Shown here in pieces: positions 2,926 through 32,270 of a stretch of DNA of 36,695 nucleotides; position 1 is the first letter of the stretch, and each line of letters opens with the position of its first letter. The position numbers and the translations under genes were made by a program. The DNA comes from a bacterium (GTDB lineage Bacteria > Armatimonadota > HRBIN16): the NCBI GenBank assembly GCA_025054895.1, contig JANWYZ010000002.1, positions 1-36,695 of the forward strand. The letters are read 5' to 3'. The notes below the pieces were generated by a model. The model saw nothing but the letters and a program-made list of their open reading frames with translations. It had not been told where the DNA came from and searched no databases.

Positions 2926-3933
2926 TTGCTCCAGCATCTGCTTGACCAGCTCGCCGAGGCGCATCGGGGCGCGTCGGACTATGTGCGCCCGGAGGAGAAC
3001 ATCGAGGCGAAGGTCTCGCGCTTCTATGACCGTATCAGCCTGCCGCTGCTGACCGACCTGCGCCTGCGCATCGAGGGCGTGGAGACCTACGAGGTGTACC
3101 CCGCGGAGCTGCCCGACCTGTTCGCGGGCGACCAGATTGTAGTGACGGGTCGCTACAAAGGCAGTGGACGCGGGGCGATGGTGCTGGAGGCGATGTCGCG
3201 TCAGCAGCGCGAGCGTATCCGCCACGCAGTGGACTTCCCCGAACGCGCCGAGAGCATGGATTTCATCCCCCGTCTGTGGGCGGTGCGCAAAATCGGATAC
3301 CTGCTGGACGAGGTGCGCCTGCATCGCAATCAGGAGGTCATCGACGAAATCGTGCGCCTGGCGAAGGAGTACGGGGTGGTCACCGAGTTCACCTCCTTCC
3401 TGATAGAGGAGGACATGATTCTGGCGCAGGCGGGTGACCGCAGGATGCTCTCACGTGCTCAGGGTTTGGTGTTTGGCATGGCTCAACCGCCATCGGGTGC
3501 AGCGGCTGTGGACACCAGCGTACAGGCGCAAACCCTGCAGAGGCGGGGCTTCGGTGGCGCGGCAGCTCCTCTGCCAGGAATAGTTGCAGGAAGAGGCGGG
3601 CAAAGCCAGGAGAGCCTGGGGCTGGCGTACACGCCTTCTGGAGTTTCCGAGCGCGCGCAGCAGGTGGTGCGTAACATCGGCACGCGCACCTTCTACCAGC
3701 AGAGCAAACAATGGGTGGATAGCAGATACCAGAAGGGGCAGCGCGTGATTACCGTGCAGGCGTTCAGTGAAGCGCATTTTGCATTGCTACGCAAACGCCC
3801 TGACCTGCGGCAGTACCTCTCGCTGGGCGAGGACGTGCTGGTACAGCTGGAGCGCGTGGCGGTACAGATTGCGCCACAGGGAAAATCCAGCCTGAGTGAA
3901 GAGGAATGGAGGCTGATTGGAACGCAATCGTAA
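2926..3933 (+). pseudogene. 5'-truncated remnant of a VIT/von Willebrand-A domain protein (C-terminal region only)
   Basis: - From about 2975 the translation (YVRPEENIEAKVSRFYDRISLPLLTDLRL, DFIPRLWAVRKIGYLLDEVRL, EVIDEIVRLAKEYGVVTEFTSFL) matches what I remember of the post-vWA C-terminal region of large bacterial VIT-vWA proteins.
- No VIT or vWA domain precedes it.
- The in-frame upstream sequence is Leu-rich junk back to a stop at 2857.
- The only start is a TTG without a Shine-Dalgarno sequence. Confidence 0.5.
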
Positions 3934-13635: not shown

Positions 13636-13663
13636 GGGCGTGCGTGGGCACGCCCCTTTTTTT
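13636..13663 (-). terminator. Bidirectional-looking terminator hairpin GGGCGTGC-GTGG-GCACGCCC flanked by A/T runs
   Basis: 8-bp GC stem immediately after the stop (13662-13664) of the last pilin-operon gene. There is a T7 run on the + strand and an interrupted T-rich run on the - strand. Confidence 0.55.
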
Positions 13664-14108
13664 AGCTCCATTTTACACCGTCGGAGGCTCGACGCACTAT
13701 CCAGCTCCAGATTGCCCAGCTTAGCGCAGCGCCGACTGAACTCCACACCAGGAATCTCCACATCGTTTGCCAGAAACCGCCGCGCTGTTGCTGTTGAATC
13801 TGGCTCTCAGCTTGCTGAAGCACCTGCTTCGCCTGTTCATCGGACACTTTCTGTGTTGCCTGCAACAGCGGTGTGCTGTCCGCGCCGGCTTGTTGTTCGA
13901 CTGGAGGCGTGCGTTTGGGAACCGATATCACCGGCGGAGGCGGCAGCTGCGGAGCCTGTTCCAACTGTTGCAGACGGGTGGCATCGTCGAACTCGCGGCT
14001 GAGCCCAGCGGCTTCTTGCGCCCCGCGAGGGTCAAAGCCGACTGCCAGCGTCGGACCGGTGATAACGCACGTGCAGAAACAGAGAACGAGCATGTGTACT
14101 ACTCTCAT
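13662..14108 (-). CDS. Hypothetical secreted/anchored Gln- and Pro-rich protein, last gene of the pilin operon
   Basis: 148 aa from the ATG at 14108. An AGGAGG lies 8 nt upstream and the start overlaps the upstream stop (ATGA). It has a signal-like N-terminus, a low-complexity Q/P-rich middle and a C-terminal Trp-rich TM helix. Confidence 0.5.
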   Translation of the reverse strand: MRVVHMLVLCFCTCVITGPTLAVGFDPRGAQEAAGLSREFDDATRLQQLEQAPQLPPPPVISVPKRTPPVEQQAGADSTPLLQATQKVSDEQAKQVLQQAESQIQQQQRGGFWQTMWRFLVWSSVGAALSWAIWSWIVRRASDGVKWS

Positions 14109-15907
14109 TGTCCCGTACCTCCTGAGAGCACCTGCCACAGCTTGGGTATCATCTTCGGCGCACGAGGCAGGTTGATGTCGATGAGGGGCGGACTGCCCGG
14201 GCCCTTATCGCGAATGCGGTTGTCGTAATTCATGCGCAGGGGCAAGCTATACAGCACCATCGCCTCATCTTTGCAGATGATGGAGCCGTTGATGGTGCAG
14301 CCGCCGCCGCCTGTCGCGATGTTGCCGCCGCCCACGAAGTTGGTGTACATGATAGCGTCGATCTGGTTGATGTTTTCTGAAATACTGGCAATATAGTCGT
14401 CGCTATAGAGCGATTGATACCTCTTCCTGCCGTAGCTATCTGTTTGAGTGGCATCGTACGCCGGTATCAGGTTGCCGTACTCATCGTAGCGCGGCTTGGT
14501 GAAGGGAGGTCTCATATAGTACAGGGGATAGTAGCCGAAGTTCTTCACGTTGCCCATGATGACGCTTCCCCGCGCGGCTAAACCGAGGATATCTCTCTTC
14601 TCGTTTTGCCGCTCGATAGCCGCGGGGTCGGTGCCTCGGAAATCAGGCGGGTTTTTGTAGCGCACACTGCCTACAATGTGCACGTTGCGTCCGGCGTAAA
14701 GCGTGCCCTGCCCCTGCACGAAGCCCTTGATGACCACGTCGCCGGTGAAAGTGACGGGACCGTGGATTCGGATAGGACGGTCGCTCGTGCCAATGAGCAC
14801 CGCGGAGCCATTCACCACGCCGTTGGTGGAGATACGCTGGTACTGATTGAGCGAGTTGTTCCACACCTCCACGTACGCCCCCTGCCCGTAGTCGGGGTTA
14901 GGAGTACCGTCGGCGAAGGTCTGTTTCTGGTCGACATAGCTCTGCGACAGGTTAATATAGCGGTTGATGTCGTCCAGGTCGGGCATGGGCAGTTCTTGCG
15001 TCGGCGTGGGGTCTAGCACAGTCCCACCGTAGGTCTTGGTGCCGCGTGCGTCCGCTACCACTGCGCCTGCTACCCTGCCGTTGACGATACTGCCGGTCTG
15101 GTCGTATATCAGGTCACGCCACTGTTCGTAGGTCGCGGAGCCTTTCGCACCGTGGCGAGTGGCATCGTAAGCCTGACGTGCGCGCGGATTGTTCTGACTG
15201 TTGTAGAAGCTGTTCGTCCACTGGGTAGGGGTGATATTGACAATACCCGCCGCCGGCGGTACCAACTTGTTGTTCGCCGAAGCGTACACGCTACCGTTGA
15301 TGGTGGGAGCGCCGCCGCTGAAGTCGAAGTTGCCGTTGGCGCGCATGTCGCCGTTGACGATGAGGTCGTTTGCTCCAAACCCGTACATCCAACCGTAGTT
15401 GTTGGCGAAGTAAGCATAATCAAACACCCCAGAACGGTCAAGGGTGAACTCCATTGTCTGCTCGAGTACCGTACGCGGCTCGCCATTATCCAGCTGCCCA
15501 TCGTTGTCGCGGTCTATCCAGCCTACCGAACGGAAGGTCAGTTCGCGACTGAAGTTGCTGTTGATGCGCTGCCCGACAATGCCGCAGGAGTAACGCAAGC
15601 CGCCTCCCAAATCCCCTCCCACTGTAGCCATTGGGTTATTAGGAGATGCACTTTGCCAGGGCACGAAACTGTCGAACTTTTGCTCTACCTTGAACTGTTT
15701 CCATACCTGCATCTTTTTGTATTCCAGTCCCGCTTCAGCAGCGTACAGGGAACGCACCGCCTGTTCTTCTCGCACTACATGACGTGAGCCGCTGGTGCTC
15801 AGGCTAAGTAGCGCAGTGCCCAGACCGAAGGACATAAACAACACCAGCAGCGAAGTGACCAGAGCGGTCGCTCGCTGCGATCTCTTGCTATACAACCTTT
15901 TGCTCAT
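14105..15907 (-). CDS. Large PilX/GspK-like minor pseudopilin (600 aa)
   Basis: - ATG at 15907 preceded by AAGGAGG.
- The N-terminus RATALVTSLLVLFMSFGLGTALLSLS...AVRSLYAAEAGLE matches the PilX N-terminal pattern: hydrophobic helix, no Glu5, AEAG motif.
- The remainder is Gly/Asn-rich with repeated V/I-x-G strands. Confidence 0.6.
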   Translation of the reverse strand: MSKRLYSKRSQRATALVTSLLVLFMSFGLGTALLSLSTSGSRHVVREEQAVRSLYAAEAGLEYKKMQVWKQFKVEQKFDSFVPWQSASPNNPMATVGGDLGGGLRYSCGIVGQRINSNFSRELTFRSVGWIDRDNDGQLDNGEPRTVLEQTMEFTLDRSGVFDYAYFANNYGWMYGFGANDLIVNGDMRANGNFDFSGGAPTINGSVYASANNKLVPPAAGIVNITPTQWTNSFYNSQNNPRARQAYDATRHGAKGSATYEQWRDLIYDQTGSIVNGRVAGAVVADARGTKTYGGTVLDPTPTQELPMPDLDDINRYINLSQSYVDQKQTFADGTPNPDYGQGAYVEVWNNSLNQYQRISTNGVVNGSAVLIGTSDRPIRIHGPVTFTGDVVIKGFVQGQGTLYAGRNVHIVGSVRYKNPPDFRGTDPAAIERQNEKRDILGLAARGSVIMGNVKNFGYYPLYYMRPPFTKPRYDEYGNLIPAYDATQTDSYGRKRYQSLYSDDYIASISENINQIDAIMYTNFVGGGNIATGGGGCTINGSIICKDEAMVLYSLPLRMNYDNRIRDKGPGSPPLIDINLPRAPKMIPKLWQVLSGGTGQ

Positions 15908-15924
15908 CTCGCGCACCTCCTTTG

Positions 15925-16431
15925 CTATCGGTTGCGCAGCACCACCAGCTCCTGCATCCTCAAGTAACGCACGCCAGCAGGCGTTTGCCTCTGCACGCAG
16001 AGCCGTACGGTCACGGTGCGTCCATTCGCGCCCAGCTGGAAAAGAGGGTAGGTGGTGCCTGTTGCCGGGTCGATGTTCATGACCCCATTGAGCAGGTGAA
16101 CTGTATCGGTCGGACCTTCTGCTGGATGCCATACTAGCGTCTGACCGGATAGCCCGACAACCCCGTCTGCTCCGTTTGGTAGCACATAGGTTACCTGCGT
16201 TTGTGAGGTGTTCACACTAACCGAGCGTGCACGGCGCAGCTCACTGGTGATGCGACGCATCGCTAACGTGGCGTCCATTGTCACCTGAACGTCGGCAGAG
16301 TTGCGCTGCCATGCTCGGGTAGATGTGCTGAGCATTGGCATCAGCGCCATCAGCAAGATGAGCATGATGCCACTGGCAACGAGCAATTCAACCAGAGTGA
16401 CTGCACGACAAGCGTTGGTGTTCCTTCGCAT
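15925..16431 (-). CDS. Minor pseudopilin (PilW/GspJ-like) with prepilin-type N-terminus
   Basis: MRRNTNACRA|VTLVELLVASGIMLILLMAL has Glu at +5 and a non-canonical Ala at the cleavage site. GGAGG lies 9 nt upstream. Confidence 0.7.
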   Translation of the reverse strand: MRRNTNACRAVTLVELLVASGIMLILLMALMPMLSTSTRAWQRNSADVQVTMDATLAMRRITSELRRARSVSVNTSQTQVTYVLPNGADGVVGLSGQTLVWHPAEGPTDTVHLLNGVMNIDPATGTTYPLFQLGANGRTVTVRLCVQRQTPAGVRYLRMQELVVLRNR

Positions 16432-16470
16432 ACTCGTAACCCTCCTTCTTCACACCTCTGTACGGGCAAA

Positions 16471-16914
16471 TTACAAATTGGTCACCAGCGTGCGCAGCTC
16501 TATCTGGCGTGTTTGCCCGTTGATGTCTCGCCAGCTTACTCGCACCGTCACCCGCCTGACATCCCACGCTACGTCTTCCACCACAATCTGTCCCTGTCCG
16601 TTTGGAAGCATGCGTGCAGGGCTTTCGCGGCTCGAGTCGTCGGTGTTGGTGAAGGAGAACGGCGATGTATTCGGACTGGCGTCAATCAATCCGTAGGCGC
16701 GTAAGCCGTCGTAGGTCAAGTTGCTATAGCCGGCGAGCTTCACCGCCTCCATGCGCCGCTGAGCCAGCGCCATCGCCATCGCTCGCCATTTTGCTCCGCC
16801 GCTTAATCGCTGGCTTACTGGAAACAGCGCGCCGAAGATTACCGCCACCACGCCCAGCAGGAAGATGGACAGTACAATCTCTGCCAGTGTAAAACCTCGT
16901 GCTCGCCGTTTCAT
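16471..16914 (-). CDS. Minor pseudopilin (PilV/GspI-like) with prepilin-type N-terminus
   Basis: MKRRARG|FTLAEIVLSIFLLGVVAVIF from the internal ATG at 16914, preceded by GAGGAGG. Confidence 0.7.
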   Translation of the reverse strand: MKRRARGFTLAEIVLSIFLLGVVAVIFGALFPVSQRLSGGAKWRAMAMALAQRRMEAVKLAGYSNLTYDGLRAYGLIDASPNTSPFSFTNTDDSSRESPARMLPNGQGQIVVEDVAWDVRRVTVRVSWRDINGQTRQIELRTLVTNL

Positions 16915-16925
16915 GGCTAACCTCC

Positions 16926-17294
16926 TCACCAGAGTTTGTGCCCTGCCGTCTCCGCCAGCGAGCAGGTGGGCGCGGTACTCACATTGTTCAGCGTATAGAC
17001 GCCCCCTGCGGGGCACGCGGTGGTTGGATAGGTCGCTGGGTTGCCCTTGATATAGGCGCTCGGTCCCACGATGTCACTCCACTGGGGAGTATCGTCTGGC
17101 TCCCTATTGTGGTCCATCGCCCATTGCTGCTTGGCGATTTCGATGCGTAACAGGTTGCCGATGCACGCCTTGCGTCGGCTCTTCTCGCGCGCCTGCACAA
17201 AATTGGGCAAGGCGATAAAGATAAGGAGTCCGATGATGAACACGACGACCATAATCTCTACCAGTGTGAAGCCCCGACGGCGTGGTTGGCGCAT
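16926..17294 (-). CDS. Type IV pilin / GspG-like major pseudopilin, paralogue 2
   Basis: MRQPRRRG|FTLVEIMVVVFIIGLLIFIALPNFVQAREKSRRKAC. Shares the helix, the AKQQWAMDHN segment and the C-terminal CPxGG...TC disulfide pattern with 17447-17797. Confidence 0.85.
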   Translation of the reverse strand: MRQPRRRGFTLVEIMVVVFIIGLLIFIALPNFVQAREKSRRKACIGNLLRIEIAKQQWAMDHNREPDDTPQWSDIVGPSAYIKGNPATYPTTACPAGGVYTLNNVSTAPTCSLAETAGHKLW

Positions 17295-22640: not shown

Positions 22641-23441
22641 TTGCGCCTGAGCGACGACCTGGTACATGAAGAGATTTACCGCTTGTTGGTACGCGAGTCG
22701 GGGCAAGCGACCTGCTTTTCGTTCGTGGTGTTGGGTGCGCTAGTAGCAGGCGCGGCTCTGGGAGGGGCGATCGCTACCGTGTCGCCCGGGGTGGCAGACC
22801 CGCAGGCGATGGTGCTGACGATGATGGTGGTAGCAGGTATCGTCGCCTATGCCTACAGACTGGTACGCTCGCGTGCGCCCCTTTCCCCTGATGATGTTCG
22901 TCGCCTTCTACCTCTGCTACGTCTGGATGAGGGGGAGCAGGCGTATATGGACGTTCTGCTGGCTTTAGGTGAGCATCCTTCCCTGGTGGAGGAAACGGCG
23001 GAGCAGATTGCACGCGAGCTCAAAGATTTGCTGGACGCCTACTATGATTTGCAGAACCACCTGGACGGTTTGCGTGAGGCGATGGGTACCGCCAGCGAGG
23101 AGGAGTACGAGAGTCTGCGCAAACGCCTGGAGCAAACAGAGGACGTCGAAGCCCGCGCTGCGCTGGAAGAAAGCCTGCAACTGCTGGCACAGCGCTTGAA
23201 GAACCGACAGGCTCTATCCACTTACGTCCAGCGCATGGAGGCGCATCTGGAGCTCATTCTGCAAACACTCAAGAGCCTGCGCGAGTCGCTTGCCCGCCTG
23301 AAGCTCGCGCCTGAGGGGACAGGGACACTGGATGTGGAACAGCTGCGCCGCCGACTGCTGGAGTTGAGGCAGGAAGCCAGCGCCATCGAAAGCGCGGCGC
23401 AGGAAGTGTTAGCAGCTACAGGTTATCGGAACAGCGAATGA
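22641..23441 (+). CDS. Hypothetical membrane-anchored coiled-coil protein
   Basis: TTG start. Two predicted TM helices (FSFVVLGALVAGAALGGAIA, MVLTMMVVAGIVAYAY) are followed by about 170 aa of Glu/Leu/Arg-rich helical sequence. I recognise no family. Confidence 0.45.
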   Translation: MRLSDDLVHEEIYRLLVRESGQATCFSFVVLGALVAGAALGGAIATVSPGVADPQAMVLTMMVVAGIVAYAYRLVRSRAPLSPDDVRRLLPLLRLDEGEQAYMDVLLALGEHPSLVEETAEQIARELKDLLDAYYDLQNHLDGLREAMGTASEEEYESLRKRLEQTEDVEARAALEESLQLLAQRLKNRQALSTYVQRMEAHLELILQTLKSLRESLARLKLAPEGTGTLDVEQLRRRLLELRQEASAIESAAQEVLAATGYRNSE

Positions 23442-25794: not shown

Positions 25795-25835
25795 CTCCCC
25801 CTTCCCTAAGCAGGAAGGGGGAGTTACTTTTCTCC
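25795..25835. terminator. Bidirectional terminator hairpin CTCCCCCTTCC-CTAAGCA-GGAAGGGGGAG between convergent genes
   Basis: Perfect 11-bp stem at 25795-25805 / 25813-25823, then TTACTTTTCT on the + strand. It sits between the apgM stop (25744) and the cytochrome stop (25858). Confidence 0.65.
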
Positions 25836-25857: not shown

Positions 25858-27330
25858 CTACTCGGCGCCCCGGCGATACGACTCCTTGAGCCTTTGCAGG
25901 TCTGCCTCGAGGATGGCTCGCCGCGTCGCAGCCGACAGGTTCGCCGAACGCGATCCCGCGCCTACCCCCAGCCTGTCCAGATTGGCGTTAGCGACATCCA
26001 GCAGGTAGCGTGCGTAGGCTGCATTGTGTATGCCGAAGCTGCTATCGCGCAGGACGAACCAGTAGTTGTGACGTGCACGCTTGACCTCGATGGGTACCTG
26101 CGCCTGTGGCGGAGCGGTCTTGCCTGCAGGGATGAGCGTGGTGTAATCCCACAGGTCCGCATCGCCCAGGTTCTGCTGTGCCCATGCCCGCAGGCGCGAG
26201 CGCAATGCCAGCAGTGCTTGCTCTATCTGCGTCTTGGTCGCTTGCGTGCGCGCTGCTGCATCGGCTGCCGTGTGGCACGGCGAGCAACCGGTATCGTAGC
26301 TCACGGTGAAGGTGTGGCGGGAGTTTGGCAGGTGGCAATGCGAGCACTGTCCGGCGATGGTAGCATGTGCCGTGGTACGTACCACTGGTCCGGGCTGCTC
26401 CTCCACGCCAGTGATACCCATGAGCATGTTGTACTGGTTGCTATAGTGGAAGTTGGGACGCGCTGTGCCGGCGTTCAGTGAGGCATCCGACGGGTTGCCG
26501 CCGCGTGCGTTATGGCATGAGGCGCATATCTGGTTGAAAGTGGTGTACTGTTTGACCGGTACGCCCGGAGCCACGTCGGTGGTATCCGTATTCAACTCGG
26601 CTCGGCGCAGCTGCACTTCCTTACCCTTCCAGGTGAGGATGCCCGTGTTGCGGTGCGGGTCATGGCACGAAACGCAGGACGCGCTCTCATGGGTCGCGTG
26701 GGCGATAGCTACGATGGCGTCTGCACTCATCGCCTGGATGCTGGCGTCGATAGCGTCGCGCGACTGCTTGTACGAGAGCTTGCTGTCCACCATCTGCGCG
26801 CGGAAGGGCGCGCTATGGCAACGGAAGCAGGTCTTACCGTAGAGGTTTGGATTCGCCTCTGCTTCCCCCACCACCGCTTCCACGGCGCCAGCGTGTCCAG
26901 ACTGTTCGTATTGGGCGGCGATGGTACCGTGACACTGTGCGCATACCACCGAGCTCGCCGCGTTCGGGTAGGTAAGGATGTTGCTCTTGAGAGGAGCCTG
27001 CACGTGTTTGCTACCCGGACCGTGGCACTGCTCGCATCCAACGTTCACCTGCGCATGTTTGGTCCTTGCCCACGCAACGGCTACTGGTTCTGCTCCCGTC
27101 TGCCTGTTGCCAGCGCCGTGGCACCCCAGACACTTGTCTGATCCCACATAGCTGGCGTCTTTCTGCGCTTCAGGCAACAGTTCGGTGAACCGTGTGGAAG
27201 GGGAGGGCGTTCCGTCGCCGGGTGGACGGATCAAAGGGCCACCGCCGCCCCCGCATCCCTCCAGCACGAACACTGCGACCGCCAGCGCCAGCGAGACGCC
27301 TGTCAGCCAAAGAATGCGTCTTCTAAGCAT
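25858..27330 (-). CDS. Octahaem c-type cytochrome, putative lipoprotein, with long haem-free helical C-terminal region
   Basis: - 490 aa with eight CXXCH motifs: CLGCH, CEQCH, CAQCH, CFRCH, CVSCH, CASCH, CSHCH, CSPCH.
- Signal peptide ending VLEGC followed by a Gly run (lipobox-like).
- GGAGG 8 nt upstream of the ATG at 27330. Confidence 0.85.
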   Translation of the reverse strand: MLRRRILWLTGVSLALAVAVFVLEGCGGGGGPLIRPPGDGTPSPSTRFTELLPEAQKDASYVGSDKCLGCHGAGNRQTGAEPVAVAWARTKHAQVNVGCEQCHGPGSKHVQAPLKSNILTYPNAASSVVCAQCHGTIAAQYEQSGHAGAVEAVVGEAEANPNLYGKTCFRCHSAPFRAQMVDSKLSYKQSRDAIDASIQAMSADAIVAIAHATHESASCVSCHDPHRNTGILTWKGKEVQLRRAELNTDTTDVAPGVPVKQYTTFNQICASCHNARGGNPSDASLNAGTARPNFHYSNQYNMLMGITGVEEQPGPVVRTTAHATIAGQCSHCHLPNSRHTFTVSYDTGCSPCHTAADAAARTQATKTQIEQALLALRSRLRAWAQQNLGDADLWDYTTLIPAGKTAPPQAQVPIEVKRARHNYWFVLRDSSFGIHNAAYARYLLDVANANLDRLGVGAGSRSANLSAATRRAILEADLQRLKESYRRGAE

Positions 27331-27364
27331 ATACCTGACCTCCTTTTACAGGGCGAAGCTTTCC

Positions 27365-28480
27365 TCACGGTGAGGTGTACGGTTGGGACAGCTTCTCTAT
27401 CTGTTGCGGCGTCAACGGCTCAGCGTACAGCATCTGCTTGCCGTCTGCCCCCGTCTTCAGGAAGACCCACTTGGTGGGGTCTGTTGTAGGCGACGCCGGG
27501 TCGCCCGTATAGTCCACAAAATCCAGCCGGAACGCCGTCTGCCAGTCTGGCGGTACAGGAATGACCCCCTTAGTGTTGACAATCTTGCTGCCATCCCATC
27601 GAGTGACAGTGATTTTGCCCGTCTGCGTGTACTCACGGATGGCAGCGTTGTCGTGGCAGTCCTCGCACTTCTTGGCGTTACGGCTAATGGTATGCGCTCG
27701 ATAGGGGGCTATCGCCACGAAGGTTTTGTCACCATAGTTGAGGGTCATCAGCGTGCCCGAGTGCACCTTACCGCCGGGCTTGCGTCGTAGCAGCAACATG
27801 TAGTCCCGGATGATACCGTGCGGGCGTTTACGGTCTGCCTGAATCTCGCTCTGCAAGTGACAGTTATAGCACGAGATAACGGACTGGGTGTGGCAGGCGG
27901 TGCAGTCTACCGTGTTGTTGTGAACTTGATGCACCTGGATATTCGCGACAGCCTTGTGGCAGGTTTCGCATTTAACCTTCACCGCGCCCTCATCCAACCA
28001 CGAAGCGTACTGCTTGCCGTCGCCATGCACATCTTCCAGCGTGTGGCAGCTCATGCAGCGGAAGCCTTTTGCACGGTGTACGTCGGAATAACCCAGCGCA
28101 ATCTCACGCGCCTGTCGGCTGTGGCACTTGAGGCAGGTGGCGTCGCTTACAGGCGAACCGGGGCTGGAATGACAGTCATCGCAGCCGGGCCGGTAGGTGG
28201 CTGGATCGATAGGGCTGCCGTCGGCTTTAGTGCCCGGATGGCACTTCATGCATTTCATGTCGGAAATGGAGATGTTCGTTAGCGCCTCGAAACCGCCGTT
28301 TTGCTTGCTGTACCACGTGGCTTTGCCCGCGCGAGTGGCGTGCAAGCTGGTGCGGAAGGTCTCTTCAATGGACATCGGAGGCGCCTTGGCGGAGTCGCCC
28401 CCGCATCCGTACAGCAGCAAGACCGCGACGGCGCTCGTCAGGGTGAAGCTCGCCAAAACAAGTTGTCTCACGCTTTTCAT
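27365..28480 (-). CDS. Octahaem c-type cytochrome, putative lipoprotein
   Basis: - 371 aa from the ATG at 28480 (AAGGAGG 8 nt upstream; the ATG at 28486 is too close to the Shine-Dalgarno).
- Signal peptide ending LLYGC.
- Eight CXXCH motifs: CMKCH, CDDCH, CLKCH, CMSCH, CETCH, CTACH, CYNCH, CEDCH.
- About 100 aa of haem-free C-terminus. Confidence 0.85.
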   Translation of the reverse strand: MKSVRQLVLASFTLTSAVAVLLLYGCGGDSAKAPPMSIEETFRTSLHATRAGKATWYSKQNGGFEALTNISISDMKCMKCHPGTKADGSPIDPATYRPGCDDCHSSPGSPVSDATCLKCHSRQAREIALGYSDVHRAKGFRCMSCHTLEDVHGDGKQYASWLDEGAVKVKCETCHKAVANIQVHQVHNNTVDCTACHTQSVISCYNCHLQSEIQADRKRPHGIIRDYMLLLRRKPGGKVHSGTLMTLNYGDKTFVAIAPYRAHTISRNAKKCEDCHDNAAIREYTQTGKITVTRWDGSKIVNTKGVIPVPPDWQTAFRLDFVDYTGDPASPTTDPTKWVFLKTGADGKQMLYAEPLTPQQIEKLSQPYTSP

Positions 28481-28540
28481 GGTCATGACCTCCTTCGATT
28501 CCCCCTGTGAGGTTCTCCGTGCGCGCATAAAGTTTTCAAT

Positions 28541-28590
28541 GTGGCACAGGCATCTTGCCCGTCGGATTACGCGCAGGATGCGCGTGCCAC
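28541..28590. repeat. Nested REP-like hairpins in the intercistronic gap of the cytochrome operon
   Basis: Three elements: GTGGCACAGGCATCTTGCCCGTC (same family as 3964-3986), the inner hairpin ACGCGCA-GGA-TGCGCGT (28569-28585), and outer arms GTGGCAC (28541-47) / GTGCCAC (28584-90). Confidence 0.6.
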
Positions 28591-28624
28591 AGGCTGGCAT
28601 GCCTCATTCTCAGTGTATGTCTGC

Positions 28625-30331
28625 TTAGAAGCGTCCACTAAGCGATAACATCACCAGTTTGGTGTCGTAATCCATCCAGCTGACCACCTCGTCGCGATAG
28701 GACCATGGCGCGATGGTCAGCGTCAGCTCGTAGTCCGAAGGTAGCCTGTAGCTGATGTTTGCTGTAAGAAAACGCCCCTCGGCGTTGCCATCCCGCAGCA
28801 GCAACGGGTTGTCGTTGTCGGTGACGAAGTTGGTATAGCTGGCGCTGATGGCGGCGCGGTTGTTGATGCTCCAGTTGAAGCCGATGGTGCTTACCCTGCT
28901 GTTGGGTACAAAGTTACGCAGGATGGGCAGCTGTGTGACCTCGCTGCGTGCTGTCCACGCCTCAGAGGAGTACTCTGCAAACACGCTGAGGTTGTCACGG
29001 GGCGTCCAGGTGCCTCCCAAGGTGAAACCGTTGAGGTTCAGAGCAACCGCCCGCGCCCCGTTTGCCCATCTCCGGTAGGTGTAGGTGAGGTAACCGTTGA
29101 AGACCGGAGTTCCCCCGTCCAGCTTCACCTGTACGAGTCGCCGGTTGTCCCAGTAGAGCGAGCGCGGGTCGGCGGTCAGCATGGCGGGCGGGTCGTTCAA
29201 CCTTTCGTCCCAGCCGCGCACCGTCAGGCGCAGCTGCTTGCTGAGCCTGCCCCACAGCCTGCCCTCCACTGTCCACCAGCGTGGTACATCCACGAAGCTG
29301 TGGTCAGCACGCACGCGCTCAGCCTCTCGCTCGCGCACGCCCACCTGGAGGCTCCACCGATTCCAGCGGTGAATGAGCGAAGCGCTGCTACTGCGTCGCT
29401 CGCGAACATAAGCGTTTTGCACAACCGGTAACGTTATCTTATCCTGCCGGAAGGCGAGAGCCAGCTCCGTAGCGGTGCCCAGCACGATATCGCCCGCCAG
29501 GTTCATCGTTTCCATTCGGCTGTTTGGGCGGTTCTGCTGGCGCAGCTCCATACGGGCGAGAGTGCCTTCTAAAGCCACCACGGGGCTAATCTCCCACAGG
29601 TAACGGGCGTGCCATCGCTCCATGCCGGTGTCGGGGAAGGTGTTTGTTCGGTCAAAATACCGCCAGTCGGTATAGCCGATGCTGATTTGCCCGTTGCCCA
29701 GTTTGCCCTCCGCCACCGCATCCCAGTAGCGGGTATTCTGTAGCAGGGGCGTGCGCGGGGTCTCCAGATAGTGGTTCTGCCCATCCTGACGATAGCGCAC
29801 GAACACCGCGAAATCAGGCGTTAGCGACTGTTTGAAGAAGGATTCGGTGACACTGCGTTCGCTGGTCGGCAGGGGTTCTGGCGCGGAGGTGATGAACCGA
29901 TTGCGAGTGGTCCACGCCTCGATGCGAGTGGCTCCAAATCCAAACGACAGGTTACCCTCCAGCCGGTAGTCGTCTTCGGTGGGGCTCCATAGCTGCAGGC
30001 GCAGGTTATCGCCTGTACGCCAGAAAGGCGAAATATAGCGCAGTTCGCGGATAAAGCGGCTGTTCGGCGGGGTGGCATACTGCCGGAACTTGCCGAGGTT
30101 GCCGCTCTCATTCCACCACGACCAGCCCAGGTCTATCGTCACCGGCTTGGGCGGGGGAGGTAGCGGCGCCTCTGGCGATTCCGGCTGAGCCTGGGTCTCT
30201 TGTTCCGACGGAGGAGTAACCTGCGCACGGGCGGGCATAATGGCGCACAGGCAAAGGGAACACACCAGCAACCCGCTCGCGAGTAAGGCGTACAGGAGTC
30301 GGTAACAGATTGAACTGCTTGTGTTCTCCAT
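28625..30331 (-). CDS. Predicted outer-membrane beta-barrel protein (porin component of the porin-cytochrome cluster)
   Basis: - 568 aa with a signal peptide ending ARA|Q and a Pro-rich linker (PEAPLPPPPKP).
- More than 20 segments of alternating hydrophobic/polar residues rich in aromatic girdle residues.
- C-terminal LSLSGRF with a terminal Phe.
- GGGGAGGG Shine-Dalgarno; the start lies 14 nt after the upstream stop. Confidence 0.7.
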   Translation of the reverse strand: MENTSSSICYRLLYALLASGLLVCSLCLCAIMPARAQVTPPSEQETQAQPESPEAPLPPPPKPVTIDLGWSWWNESGNLGKFRQYATPPNSRFIRELRYISPFWRTGDNLRLQLWSPTEDDYRLEGNLSFGFGATRIEAWTTRNRFITSAPEPLPTSERSVTESFFKQSLTPDFAVFVRYRQDGQNHYLETPRTPLLQNTRYWDAVAEGKLGNGQISIGYTDWRYFDRTNTFPDTGMERWHARYLWEISPVVALEGTLARMELRQQNRPNSRMETMNLAGDIVLGTATELALAFRQDKITLPVVQNAYVRERRSSSASLIHRWNRWSLQVGVREREAERVRADHSFVDVPRWWTVEGRLWGRLSKQLRLTVRGWDERLNDPPAMLTADPRSLYWDNRRLVQVKLDGGTPVFNGYLTYTYRRWANGARAVALNLNGFTLGGTWTPRDNLSVFAEYSSEAWTARSEVTQLPILRNFVPNSRVSTIGFNWSINNRAAISASYTNFVTDNDNPLLLRDGNAEGRFLTANISYRLPSDYELTLTIAPWSYRDEVVSWMDYDTKLVMLSLSGRF

Positions 30332-30345
30332 AGCATTACCCTCCC

Positions 30346-31335
30346 CTATGGGCGACGCAACAGCGCGTCCGAATTGGAGCCGTGCACAGCCGCATGGCAG
30401 CCCGCCATCCAGCAGTTACGCCCCGGATAGTGCGTGGCTGATTTGTCAGTGTGGCACTGCGTGCACAACCCTCTCGAGAAGGCGTTTAACAGCTTGGGGT
30501 TTTGCGAGCCGTGCGCACGGTGGCACTCGGTGCATCCCTCTCCGCTCCATCCGGCGACCGGATCGTGTTCATAGGTGAACGGTCCGGCTTTGTCGGGATG
30601 GCAGCTGACGCACATCTCCTTGATGGGGCGGAAGCGTTTCTGCGCCGCCTTGCTGGGATGCGCTTCATGACATTCGCTACATTCCAGCCTGCGTTCAGGA
30701 ACTGGATGGTGGAAGTTGAGCCGGAACTCGTTCGCCTGACGTTGGTGACATTGGCTACACAGGATGGGGTCGTCGAACTTCAAAAGGCGACGGGGTTGCG
30801 GTTCCTTCTCCGTCTGCGGCGAGCGCAGGCTGCCCAGGTTGATCAGCCCTCGCGAAGGAGGCTCTTTATGCGGCTCCCAGTGAATCTGGTGACACGCAGT
30901 GCAGGCTACATCCGCCTTGCCATGCTGGGTGCGATGCCACTGGGACAGGCGCATGGTGTCGGCATGGCAACGCAGGCACATCGCGGCGATGTCTGCCGGC
31001 TTAGACTGGCTGTAGCTGAAGATTTTGGTGGGGTCTTCCAGATGCGGTTTCGCCGGCCCGTGACATGCTTCGCATCCTTGTTTATCCAGCGGTAGCCTGG
31101 TGTTGCGTACAAACGGCGCGTGCGGCGAGCGGGTGAAATTGTCGGCGTGGGGATAGTGACATCCTGATTCAGCGCAGTCCTTCTCGCCCATATAGTCGTC
31201 GGAAGTTGCTTCGGCGAAGAGGCTCAATGGATACGGGGGGGACTTCTGCTGTCCTTTCTCCGCCACAACGGTCACCGCTGTTAACACCGCCAACGCTATT
31301 ACGCTCAAACAGAGCCAACGTCTTTGCACGCCCAC
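30346..31335 (-). CDS. Periplasmic multihaem c-type cytochrome (8 CXXCH + 2 CX4CH; MtrA/DmsE/PioA-sized)
   Basis: - 329 aa with a Sec-type signal peptide and no lipobox Cys.
- CXXCH motifs at C88, C120, C145, C193, C219, C242, C268 and C291.
- CX4CH at C54-C59 and C308-C313.
- Ends in ...CHAAVHGSNSDALL, like doubled-CXXCH modules.
- GTG start 7 nt after CAGGAGGG. Confidence 0.85.
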   Translation of the reverse strand: MGVQRRWLCLSVIALAVLTAVTVVAEKGQQKSPPYPLSLFAEATSDDYMGEKDCAESGCHYPHADNFTRSPHAPFVRNTRLPLDKQGCEACHGPAKPHLEDPTKIFSYSQSKPADIAAMCLRCHADTMRLSQWHRTQHGKADVACTACHQIHWEPHKEPPSRGLINLGSLRSPQTEKEPQPRRLLKFDDPILCSQCHQRQANEFRLNFHHPVPERRLECSECHEAHPSKAAQKRFRPIKEMCVSCHPDKAGPFTYEHDPVAGWSGEGCTECHRAHGSQNPKLLNAFSRGLCTQCHTDKSATHYPGRNCWMAGCHAAVHGSNSDALLRRP

Positions 31336-31384
31336 AGGAATACCCTCCTGAGAACAAAGAGTTTGTCGTACAGACTGTGCTAAA

Positions 31385-31394
31385 ACACTAGTGT
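31385..31394. promoter_or_regulatory. Perfect 10-bp palindrome ACACTAGTGT between promoter and RBS of the cytochrome operon (operator candidate)
   Basis: The sequence is self-complementary and flanked by partially symmetric TTTTAG/CTAAAA. It lies in the predicted 5' UTR about 50 nt upstream of the GTG start. Confidence 0.4.
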
Positions 31395-31440
31395 ACTAAA
31401 ATAAGGTGAACACATTATAGTTTCTCACTTCACTATTCTA

Positions 31441-31469
31441 AATATACAAAATAACAGCGACTTTGTCAA
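31441..31469 (-). promoter_or_regulatory. Near-consensus sigma70-like promoter of the cytochrome operon: TTGACA, 17 nt, TATATT
   Basis: On the minus strand, -35 TTGACA is at 31469-31464, followed by an exact 17-nt spacer and -10 TATATT at 31446-31441. It lies in an AT-rich 130-bp upstream region. A second TATAAT is at 31419-31414. Confidence 0.6.
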
Positions 31470-31825
31470 TGGGGAACCTCTATTTTTCTGATAAAACCTT
31501 CGGAAACGGTTCTTGCTTTTCCTGCTTCAAAAGCATGGATGAGGTAACATTTTGCGAATCGAGAGGTCGTAACGCGCTGACCTCTGGGTATCGATGCCAG
31601 CTGGTACCGGGGTCAGTATGCGTTACGCTGGGGGCTTTCTCTGGAGAGGCATACAGGCTTACCTTGTTGTCATGTTTTTGTCTGCGAGCATCTGTCTATC
31701 CACCGTTGAAATGGTGGGCTATGCAGCAGGAAAAAACTGCCTGCGCAGGTTTCTCTAATCCGCATTTTGAACATCCTCAGCGAAAATCGCTTGCGTGTCT
31801 CATTACGAACGCTCTCCGTTTGTAG

Positions 31826-32170
31826 TCGGCGGCTCGGCGGGAGCCTCGCCCTCCAGCCCCCGTTGTCACCCTGAGCGTTAGCGAAGGGTCTCAGATGCTT
31901 CGCCTTTGGCTCAGCATGACAAAGGGACAACGCTGGAGGGTGCGCTCCGTCGCGACCATAATGGCGGACGCAACGGAGTGCGTCCCTCCAAATGTAGGTA
32001 GGCAACCTCTGGAGGGTCGCGCTCCGTCGCGACCACGCAACCTAACGGTTCGGCGGGAGCCTCGCCCTCCAACCCTGTTGTCATTCTGAGCGCAAGCGAA
32101 GAATCTCCGAGATGCTTCGCCTTCGGCTCAGCATGACACTATTGGAGGGTCGCGCTCCGTCGCAACCGCT
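31826..32170. repeat. Mosaic of REP-like palindromic elements containing a ~120-bp direct repeat (31833-31957 and 32049-32167)
   Basis: Each copy carries three modules:
- (i) TCGGCGGGAGCCTCGCCCTCC.
- (ii) The long imperfect hairpin GTCAYYCTGAGCG..AGCGAAG...GCTTCGCC..GGCTCAGCATGAC.
- (iii) GGAGGGTSCGCTCCGTCGCRACC.
Extra copies of module (iii) lie at 32011-32034 (direct) and 31966-31989 (inverted). Confidence 0.8.
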
Positions 32171-32216
32171 CCAAGCCGGACGGCTTAGCCCCTTGTTCGT
32201 ATGCCCTCCGAGATAC

Positions 32217-32245
32217 TTGACTTTTTTGTAAGAATTGAGCATAAT
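32217..32245 (+). promoter_or_regulatory. Sigma70-like promoter of the Rrf2-suf operon: TTGACT, 17 nt, CATAAT
   Basis: -35 at 32217-32222, 17-nt spacer, -10 at 32240-32245. It lies 25 nt upstream of the ATG at 32271, with AGAGGAGAG as the Shine-Dalgarno sequence. Confidence 0.55.
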
Positions 32246-32270
32246 ATGAGTGTAATAGAGGAGAGACCAG

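Follow-up and report, generated by a model that had tools for sequence, protein, structure and literature searches.

A candidate Mtr-type electron conduit with an OcwA/OmhA-related surface cytochrome in Armatimonadota

Introduction

Could an outer-membrane barrel and three multihaem cytochromes, encoded side by side in a hot-spring member of the Armatimonadota, carry electrons across the outer membrane, and would they then form a conduit of a new type or a variant of a known one? The question is raised by four genes on contig JANWYZ010000002.1 of assembly GCA_025054895.1 (lineage HRBIN16). The whole stretch of DNA analysed, positions 1 to 36,695 of this contig (36,695 nucleotides), is called the window here. 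An earlier note, made from the letters of the window, had read the genes as a porin-cytochrome operon and a candidate extracellular electron-transfer conduit of an uncharacterised type, none of whose parts could be recognised. Its first proposal is strengthened by a large barrel in the structural model, a phylum-wide pairing of this barrel with a periplasmic cytochrome, and conserved lipoboxes and secretion tags. The claim that no part is recognisable does not hold, as the first gene encodes a decahaem cytochrome of the MtrA/DmsE/MtoA family and the fourth a relative of the characterised cytochromes OcwA and OmhA. The operon probably encodes an MtrAB-type electron conduit across the outer membrane whose surface cytochromes have been swapped. 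In type, it is a variant of Mtr and not a categorically new conduit.

Operon organization

The four genes are co-directional on the minus strand. In order of transcription they are cytA (gene 1; 30346..31335; 329 amino acids, GTG start), the barrel gene (gene 2; 28625..30331; 568 amino acids), cytC (gene 3; 27365..28480; 371 amino acids), and cytD (gene 4; 25858..27330; 490 amino acids). The coordinates come from the listing of open reading frames (ORFs), except that cytC is taken to start at its second in-frame ATG. With this start at 28480, the gaps between the genes are 14, 144, and 34 nucleotides, as the earlier note had given them. Motif counting likewise returns its total of 26 haem-binding motifs, with ten in cytA, eight in cytC, eight in cytD, and none in the barrel.

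The MtrAB-like core

The assignment of cytA is unmistakable. The protein has a Sec signal with a readable cleavage site (...TVVA|EK), which predicts a periplasmic location, and ten haem sites, eight of the CXXCH and two of the CX4CH form. It matches the NCBIfam model of the DmsE family decahaem, TIGR03508, with E 3.3e-52 and 177.5 bits (curated cut-off 192.2), and Pfam Paired_CXXCH_1 with 93 bits. Against the model of the Geobacter GSU2203 family of decahaem cytochromes it scores 183.9 bits, well short of the cut-off of 325, and so falls outside that family. The best solved relative is MtrA (PDB 6r2q_A, E 6.8e-27), with which the eight CXXCH motifs align one to one. All ten sites also stay in register across an alignment with four Armatimonadota homologues that are 44-58% identical to cytA. 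The last site is CX4CH (CW-x-AGCH; 30412-30432, residues 308-314) in every Armatimonadota homologue examined. The first (CAESGCH; 31172-31192, residues 54-60) takes this form through a two-residue insertion that is missing from the four aligned homologues. cytA thus reads as a decahaem cytochrome of the MtrA/DmsE/MtoA family, with clear homology and all ten haem sites of the TIGR03508 family.

The second gene follows cytA directly and encodes a protein with the outline of an outer-membrane barrel, including a signal peptide (...PARA|QV) and a C-terminal ...GRF that ends in phenylalanine. In an AlphaFold2 model built from a 41-sequence alignment (the window barrel plus 40 sequences most closely related to it), residues 1-36 form the signal peptide, residues 37-60 a disordered proline-rich linker, and residues 64-567 the barrel. 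The model has a predicted local distance difference test score (pLDDT) of 87.1 and a predicted template-modelling score (pTM) of 0.73. It shows a signal helix and 26 beta-strands, so the 568-residue protein is indeed predicted to be a large transmembrane barrel, as the earlier note had expected. Strands 2-4 span only 7-9 residues, and the loop between strands 1 and 2 contains a small helix. The crystal structure of MtrB has 26 antiparallel strands, of which the first four are shorter, and a capping helix in the strand 1-2 loop (PMC7198977). In a Foldseek search of the PDB, MtrB (6r2q_B) is the top match of the modelled barrel, with E 8.5e-13 and a template-modelling (TM) score of 0.71 by query and 0.63 by target. 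The next matches are 22-strand TonB-dependent receptors with TM scores of 0.35-0.51, those by query being 0.38-0.51. An identification of the barrel as a TonB-dependent receptor or an LptD-like protein was considered and rejected on account of these lower-ranked folds, the lack of a plug domain, and the constant pairing with an MtrA homologue.

Sequence searches with the barrel itself (Pfam, NCBIfam, and phmmer against the PDB) return no match. The family has few members: when 1.84 billion representatives were searched exhaustively with its profile, 227 matched, 110 of them below 1e-30. The path to MtrB leads through distant relatives, which are homologous over the full length of the barrel (hhalign probability 100, E 3e-67). 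Among 27 of these, six show in-register matches to PF11854 (MtrB_PioB) below the threshold, the best at E 8e-5, with 16-19 bits against a cut-off of 23. One distant barrel, P0402, is encoded directly downstream of a decahaem cytochrome that passes the TIGR03508 cut-off (199.4 vs 192.2 bits) and upstream of a 676-amino-acid cytochrome with an MtrC/MtrF domain. We conclude that the barrel is, by its predicted fold and these weak transitive matches, a divergent sheath of the MtrB/PioB type. The earlier remark that it is shorter than MtrB and PioB is correct in residues. As a sign of a different type it does not stand, since the model has 26 strands and MtrB is the closest solved structure. The modelled shortness comes from shorter loops, not from fewer strands.

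These data also bear on an explanation in which no transmembrane wire exists. The barrel would then be an ordinary diffusion porin or substrate channel, the cytochromes would be periplasmic carriers, the lipoproteins would be anchored to the inner face of a membrane, and the genes would be encoded together by chance. Such an explanation could draw on the missing MtrB_PioB match, on the weak Porin_4 matches of 11 of the 41 barrel family members, and on lipoprotein sorting, which is unstudied in Armatimonadota. However, general porins are much smaller than a barrel of 26 strands, the best structural match is clearly MtrB, a homologue of MtrA accompanies the barrel in 40 of 43 loci (see below), and relatives of cytC bear tags for extracellular secretion. 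We consider this explanation very improbable.

Predicted surface cytochromes

The operon departs from the Mtr pattern in its last two genes. The signal peptides and lipobox-like G-C of both products, which the earlier note had pointed out, can be read from the sequence. In cytD, which contains eight CXXCH motifs, the lipobox reads VLEG-C-GGGGG, and Cys26, the glycines that follow it, and all eight CXXCH motifs are invariant in 45 homologues. Outside the motifs, seven histidines are likewise invariant, and one more is retained by 90% or more of these homologues, giving eight for eight haems. The family is essentially confined to Armatimonadota.

A cytD profile searched against the PDB finds OcwA (6i5b, 2.5e-15) and OmhA (6qvm, 5.8e-14), then MccA (1.8e-7), and after these NrfA and octahaem nitrite reductases (ONR), whose matches are weak (E 4e-5 to 1e-1). 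The alignments share the block G-x-x-CEQCHGPG-x-KH and the helix motif of a C-terminal three-helix bundle, D-x-S-x-G-x-HN. The AlphaFold model of cytD (pLDDT 88.7, pTM 0.85) places long C-terminal helices at residues 355-388, 414-428, 437-453, and 467-488. Its top three Foldseek matches are OmhA and OcwA structures, with TM scores of about 0.44 and E from 1e-7 to 2e-5, at a sequence identity of about 18-19%. No match of cytD to PF22113 or TIGR03507 was found, and no MtrC, OmcA, MtrF, or UndA structure appears among its sequence or fold matches in the PDB. An assignment to the MtrC/OmcA-type decahaem cytochromes was rejected on the basis of the eight haems, the lack of a family match, and the OcwA and OmhA relatives. 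OcwA is a cell-surface terminal reductase of the Gram-positive thermophile Thermincola potens that shares ancestry with NrfA, c554, and MccA but not with MtrC (PMC6703420). Within the NrfA multihaem superfamily, OcwA and OmhA group in one clade with MccA and c554 (PMC9250108). By profile and model, cytD is an octahaem lipoprotein of the OcwA/OmhA/MccA branch of this superfamily, joined here to an Mtr-type core.

This ancestry suggests a second alternative, in which cytA and the barrel are a feeder like DmsEF and cytD, perhaps with cytC, is a catalytic reductase of soluble nitrite, hydroxylamine, sulfite, or tetrathionate outside the outer membrane. cytD does belong to the NrfA/ONR/MccA/OcwA superfamily; its matches include MccA, NrfA, and octahaem nitrite reductases, and it shares the C-terminal D-x-S-x-G-x-HN motif. 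OcwA itself reduces nitrite and hydroxylamine, but this nitrite turnover is very slow (PMC6703420). The MtrAB paralogues DmsEF of Shewanella serve an extracellular enzyme (PMC7198977). Motif counting finds no CXXCK in cytD, however, and the eight conserved additional histidines would be enough to make all eight haems six-coordinate. In addition, its strongest matches are OcwA and OmhA, which are non-dedicated surface reductases, whereas true nitrite reductases match 10 orders of magnitude less strongly. A catalytic reductase of soluble substrates appears improbable.

cytC, the third gene, has eight CXXCH motifs and a lipobox, LLYG-C, that precedes a run of glycines. The start at ATG 28480 lies 8-9 nucleotides after a GAAGGAGG ribosome-binding site and is also the one called in the identical NCBI record. 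A longer version of 411 amino acids, from the longest ORF (27365-28600), was rejected as a longest-frame artefact, because both this site and the NCBI record favour 371 amino acids. The score of cytC against PF22113 (MtrC/MtrF domain II/IV) is 21.8 bits, and those of its relatives reach 23.6-26.3, under a cut-off of 30. A cytC profile finds only weak matches to MccA and NrfB in the PDB.

The distribution of cytC differs from that of cytD. Its family comprises 364 homologues from many phyla, among them Armatimonadota, Acidobacteriota, Bipolaricaulota, and Ignavibacteria, and includes a Ramlibacter protein named JDVT-CTERM and a protein of Geoglobus ahangari, an Fe(III)-respiring archaeon. Some relatives carry a type IX secretion domain (Por_Secre_tail) above threshold, or a dockerin. 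They stand alone in Blastocatellia and Geoglobus and form part of a multihaem cluster in Bipolaricaulota. Identities are about 50-64% across Armatimonadota, Blastocatellia, Bipolaricaulota, and G. ahangari, in a comparison that involves three assemblies with accessions close to that of the window, which may share one study, and several of the same hot-spring assemblies. Because identities reach about 60% between phyla, the data suggest that cytC has spread by recent horizontal transfer between phyla and even between domains. Within the operon, cytC occurs only in seven loci of the HRBIN16 type, always between the barrel and cytD. We read it as a mobile extracellular octahaem module, lipid-anchored here. 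Both cytC and cytD would be exposed at the cell surface.

Conservation across Armatimonadota

The window barrel is 100% identical to the product of a gene on GCA_033578435.1. Its identity to proteins from "bacterium HR16" and further Armatimonadota metagenome-assembled genomes (MAGs) is 86-87%. A scan of one genome per GTDB species with a 14-sequence barrel alignment yielded 43 loci, which were then searched with the four window proteins by tblastn. All but one of these (42 of 43) are labelled Armatimonadota or have no phylum in the title, and they include HR16, HR15, Chthonomonadia, Chthonomonas, Fimbriimonadaceae, and Fervidibacter. The remaining locus (CAWHLK010000031.1), which carries the cytA-barrel pair, is labelled 'uncultured archaeon'. 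It is probably a mis-binned bacterial contig, because an outer-membrane barrel is implausible in an archaeon.

In 40 of the 43 loci, the gene immediately upstream of the barrel is a cytA homologue; contig ends truncate the remaining three loci. cytD is present downstream of the barrel in 28 of 43, the cultured Fervidibacter sacchari PD1 being among those with a cytA-barrel-cytD cluster. The trio is seen in metagenome contigs as well. In tandem form, the cytA-barrel pair is duplicated in a Chthonomonas sp. (locus L037, 1656-8279) and a Fimbriimonadaceae MAG (locus L047, 2342-8635). Thus, the conserved unit is the cytA-barrel pair, usually with cytD, and the four-gene form is a clade-specific elaboration into which cytC has been inserted. 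The synteny that the earlier note had asked about therefore holds for the pair, but for the block of four it is restricted to the seven HRBIN16-type loci.

In two Fervidibacter loci (L001 and L002, 11604-12952), the barrel and cytD are separated by a spacer of 1.5 kb with repeated pairs of ORFs on the opposite strand, of 126 and 85 and then 126 and 86 amino acids, without a Pfam match. A similar pair (117 and 106 amino acids) lies between cytA and the barrel in Fervidibacter. These ORFs may be genuine small genes, or false predictions within a repeat.

Two relatives encode possible partners in the inner membrane. About 5 kb downstream of the module, a Fervidibacter metagenome contig (L001, 16932-20341 and 20496-21578) has genes for a 13-haem cytochrome related to MtrA and for a 688-amino-acid fusion of an 11-haem c-type domain with an FdnI/HydC-type cytochrome b, which we take to be CbcL-like in architecture. 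A gene for haem-copper oxidase subunit I then follows, about 9 kb from the Fervidibacter cluster. In a Fimbriimonas MAG (L006, 3890-6568), genes for a tetrahaem cytochrome, an NrfC/TtrB-like 4Fe-4S protein, and an NrfD-like membrane subunit are divergent from cytA-barrel-cytD, and CcmF is encoded just downstream. The Fervidibacter fusion and the NrfCD-like module of Fimbriimonas are candidate inner-membrane links for the conduit.

Proposed mechanism and direction of electron flow

In the proposed mechanism, cytA would leave the cytoplasm by the Sec pathway, mature in the periplasm, and then insert into the lumen of the 26-strand barrel, so that its ten haems would span the outer membrane, shielded from lipid by the barrel. 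At the outer face, this haem chain could exchange electrons, in either direction, with the lipid-anchored octahaem cytD acting as a terminal cytochrome like OcwA and OmhA. In the HRBIN16-type clade, cytC would join the exchange at the surface. A periplasmic redox pool would thereby be tied to extracellular substrates such as iron and manganese minerals or other redox-active solids.

Several observations weigh against this mechanism. The insertion of cytA into the barrel is argued by analogy. None of the 41 barrel family members matches PF11854, a PDB search with the profile of this family does not find MtrB, and the score of cytA is about 15 bits under the TIGR03508 cut-off. Four genomes (L034, L039, L040, and L041), including bacterium HR15, have the cytA-barrel pair without an adjacent surface cytochrome, and the 5-7 kb of their downstream flanks contain no multihaem gene. 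The superfamily of cytD is rich in catalytic nitrite and sulfite reductases, and similar proteins in Armatimonadota MAGs from mats have been annotated as 'candidate octoheme nitrite reductase' (PMC11788075), an annotation that also speaks for the reductase alternative above. The window lacks a gene for a quinol dehydrogenase, as the earlier note had observed, whether of the NapC/CymA, NrfD, cytochrome b, or another kind. Lastly, F. sacchari PD1 is reported to be an aerobe without anaerobic growth (PMC11535203). That it has the cytA-barrel-cytD cluster and yet does not grow anaerobically argues against a simple role in Fe(III) respiration in that lineage.

The earlier note held that sequence does not reveal which way the electrons flow, and we agree, because Mtr-type wires are reversible. 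Outward flow, which would allow respiration of extracellular acceptors when oxygen is scarce, is slightly favoured over an even chance because the surface cytochromes are related to OcwA and OmhA. Alternatively, the same conduit could run inward, as an uptake system similar to MtoAB and PioAB that oxidizes extracellular Fe(II) or reduced minerals and delivers the electrons to an aerobic respiratory chain. The order of the genes, cytA before the barrel, is that of pioAB and mtoAB, and the four genomes with the pair and no adjacent surface cytochrome would fit this role, as would the haem-copper oxidase gene near the Fervidibacter cluster. However, we know of no Fe(II)-oxidation phenotype in Armatimonadota, most loci (the window included) add one or two surface lipoprotein cytochromes, and OcwA and OmhA, the characterised cytochromes to which cytD is most closely related, serve Fe(III) and electrode reducers as terminal reductases. 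The hosts are for the most part aerobic heterotrophs, and the missing anaerobic growth of F. sacchari also agrees with uptake (PMC9671151; PMC11535203). Additionally, Fe(II) oxidation has been proposed for an 'MtoAB-like' pair in another class of the phylum (Kato et al., 2022, PMC9671151). With the reversibility of the wire also speaking against a firm choice of direction, we regard inward flow as less likely than not.

For the swapped-surface MtrAB-type conduit as a whole, a broader reading is offered more tentatively, at somewhat less than even chances. A wire of the Gram-negative MtrAB type and a terminal cytochrome of the Gram-positive OcwA/OmhA type would together form a hybrid conduit that is found phylum-wide and has a non-classical role in aerobic thermophiles such as F. 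sacchari, with cytC as a plug-in surface adaptor exchanged among hot-spring organisms. Possible roles of such a hybrid are electron uptake from Fe(II) or minerals and surface catalysis on nitrogen or sulfur oxyanions.

Expression signals and genomic context

Upstream of cytA, on the minus strand, lies the promoter-like site that the earlier note had called near-consensus, TTGACA-17-TATATT (31441..31469), which matches the consensus at 11 of 12 positions. A second, weaker promoter-like site overlaps it (31414..31442, minus strand). Both are consensus matches only, from a scan that found 3 sites where shuffled sequences give 2.2. An AGGAGG ribosome-binding site (31344..31349, minus strand) is positioned 8 nucleotides 5' of the cytA GTG. 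Terminator calls are likewise consensus matches only, and the scan shows no minus-strand terminator-like site inside the operon. cytD and the phosphoglycerate mutase gene converge, and a GC-rich hairpin with an 11-bp stem (25795..25823, unstranded) lies between their ends, with a T-run on the plus strand only. The hairpin is likely the end of the operon and may also serve as a minus-strand terminator. With this arrangement, the four genes would be co-transcribed.

Genes for GH130 and iPGM are also found in the window, along with those of an RND efflux system that includes a TolC-like OEP. The RND and OEP genes are consistent with a diderm cell envelope. Upstream of the operon and divergent from it are an Rrf2 regulator gene and sufCBD. 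The closest related loci keep the downstream iPGM and GH130 genes, but not the adjacency to Rrf2 and suf. For this reason, Rrf2/suf was rejected as a functional partner that would link the operon to Fe-S assembly.

The intergenic region of 935 bp between the operon and the Rrf2 gene (31336-32270) has, between the operon promoter and Rrf2, a direct duplication of about 216 nucleotides (31830-32167), where the GC content falls to 0.52. Its modules are 31830-31859 with 32046-32075, 31893-31921 with 32110-32138, and 31933-31957 with 32010-32034 and 32143-32167. Two of the modules were searched for and have no further copy in the window; with the repeat region as query, BLAST returned nothing from the 43 related loci, and the region has no Rfam match. 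An Rfam scan of the whole window found no family. Elsewhere, a number of large ORFs lack a Pfam match at E 1e-5, namely one of 675 amino acids (14105-16132) with flanking ORFs of 158, 168, and 181 amino acids, all within 13662-17016 on the minus strand, and two on the plus strand of 335 (2926-3933) and 266 amino acids (22641-23441).

Novelty and implications

Mtr/Mto/Pio-type modules and porin-cytochrome clusters are already known from many phyla, and an 'MtoAB-like' pair and unexplained multihaem cytochromes have been mentioned in Armatimonadota MAGs (PMC9671151; PMC11788075). A literature search for a porin-cytochrome system in Armatimonadota found only brief, FeGenie-based mentions, and no description of the barrel family, its MtrB-like fold, an OcwA-type partner, or the phylum-wide synteny. 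Because MtrB_PioB profiles miss the barrel family, FeGenie or Pfam under-call such systems.

If the proposed conduit is real, it would extend Mtr-type systems to the Armatimonadota, a widespread and mostly uncultured phylum whose members are regarded as aerobic polysaccharide degraders. To our knowledge, the phylum has no known electroactive member. Armatimonadota of hot springs and soils would gain a possible role in iron and mineral redox cycling. An MtrAB core that works with surface cytochromes of a different lineage, that of OcwA and OmhA, would bear on the evolution of conduits by module swapping and on the engineering of synthetic conduits with thermostable parts. Since the cultured F. 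sacchari PD1 carries a cytA-barrel-cytD cluster, the hypothesis is open to experiment.

Comparison with known systems

MtrCAB of Shewanella (6R2Q), together with MtrDEF and DmsEF, resembles the operon in having a periplasmic decahaem cytochrome of the same family as cytA. The haem sites of cytA deviate in detail, as the last is CX4CH throughout the clade and the first is too in the window. MtrB and the modelled window barrel are alike in their 26 strands, short first strands, and helix in the loop 1-2, whereas the window barrel does not match PF11854 and is about 100-130 residues shorter. MtrCAB places a lipoprotein multihaem cytochrome with a lipobox of the Cys-Gly-Gly type outside the membrane, as the window operon would too. 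MtrC, OmcA, MtrF, and UndA have ten or eleven haems and a staggered-cross fold. The predicted outer cytochromes of the window, in contrast, are octahaem proteins outside the MtrC/OmcA family. The gene order differs as well, with cytA-barrel-(cytC)-cytD in the window and C-A-B in Shewanella.

OcwA of T. potens (6I5B) and OmhA of Carboxydothermus ferrireducens (6QVM) share with cytD their haem-motif blocks, a C-terminal helical bundle, and the fold, and all three would be cell-surface cytochromes of thermophiles, given the predicted location of cytD. However, OcwA has 9 haems and OmhA 11, and both reside on Gram-positive cell walls or S-layers, whereas cytD has 8 and a lipobox and is coupled to an outer-membrane core of the MtrAB type.

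MtoAB of Sideroxydans and PioAB of Rhodopseudomonas share the MtrA/MtrB-type core with the window, and their two-gene form is matched by those Armatimonadota genomes that have only the cytA-barrel pair. They differ in that the window and most of its relatives add surface lipoprotein cytochromes, that no partner of the PioC/HiPIP or MtoD/CymA type is found in the window, and that the barrel is outside PF11854. The 'MtoAB-like' pair flagged earlier was found in a single Armatimonadota MAG of the class UBA5829 (PMC9671151).

Among these systems, the earlier note had placed the operon closest to ExtABCD. The layout does support this view. The OmaB-OmbB-OmcB and ExtABCD systems of Geobacter each comprise a periplasmic cytochrome, a barrel, and one or two lipoprotein cytochromes, and the window mirrors ExtABCD in this arrangement. 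The barrels OmbB and ExtB are predicted to have about 18-20 strands, compared with 26 in the model of the window barrel. In its parts, however, the operon appears to differ from the Geobacter systems, as all positive homology evidence points to the Mtr type. With a layout that resembles ExtABCD and components homologous to those of Mtr, Mto, and Pio, the operon is best described as an Mtr-type variant.

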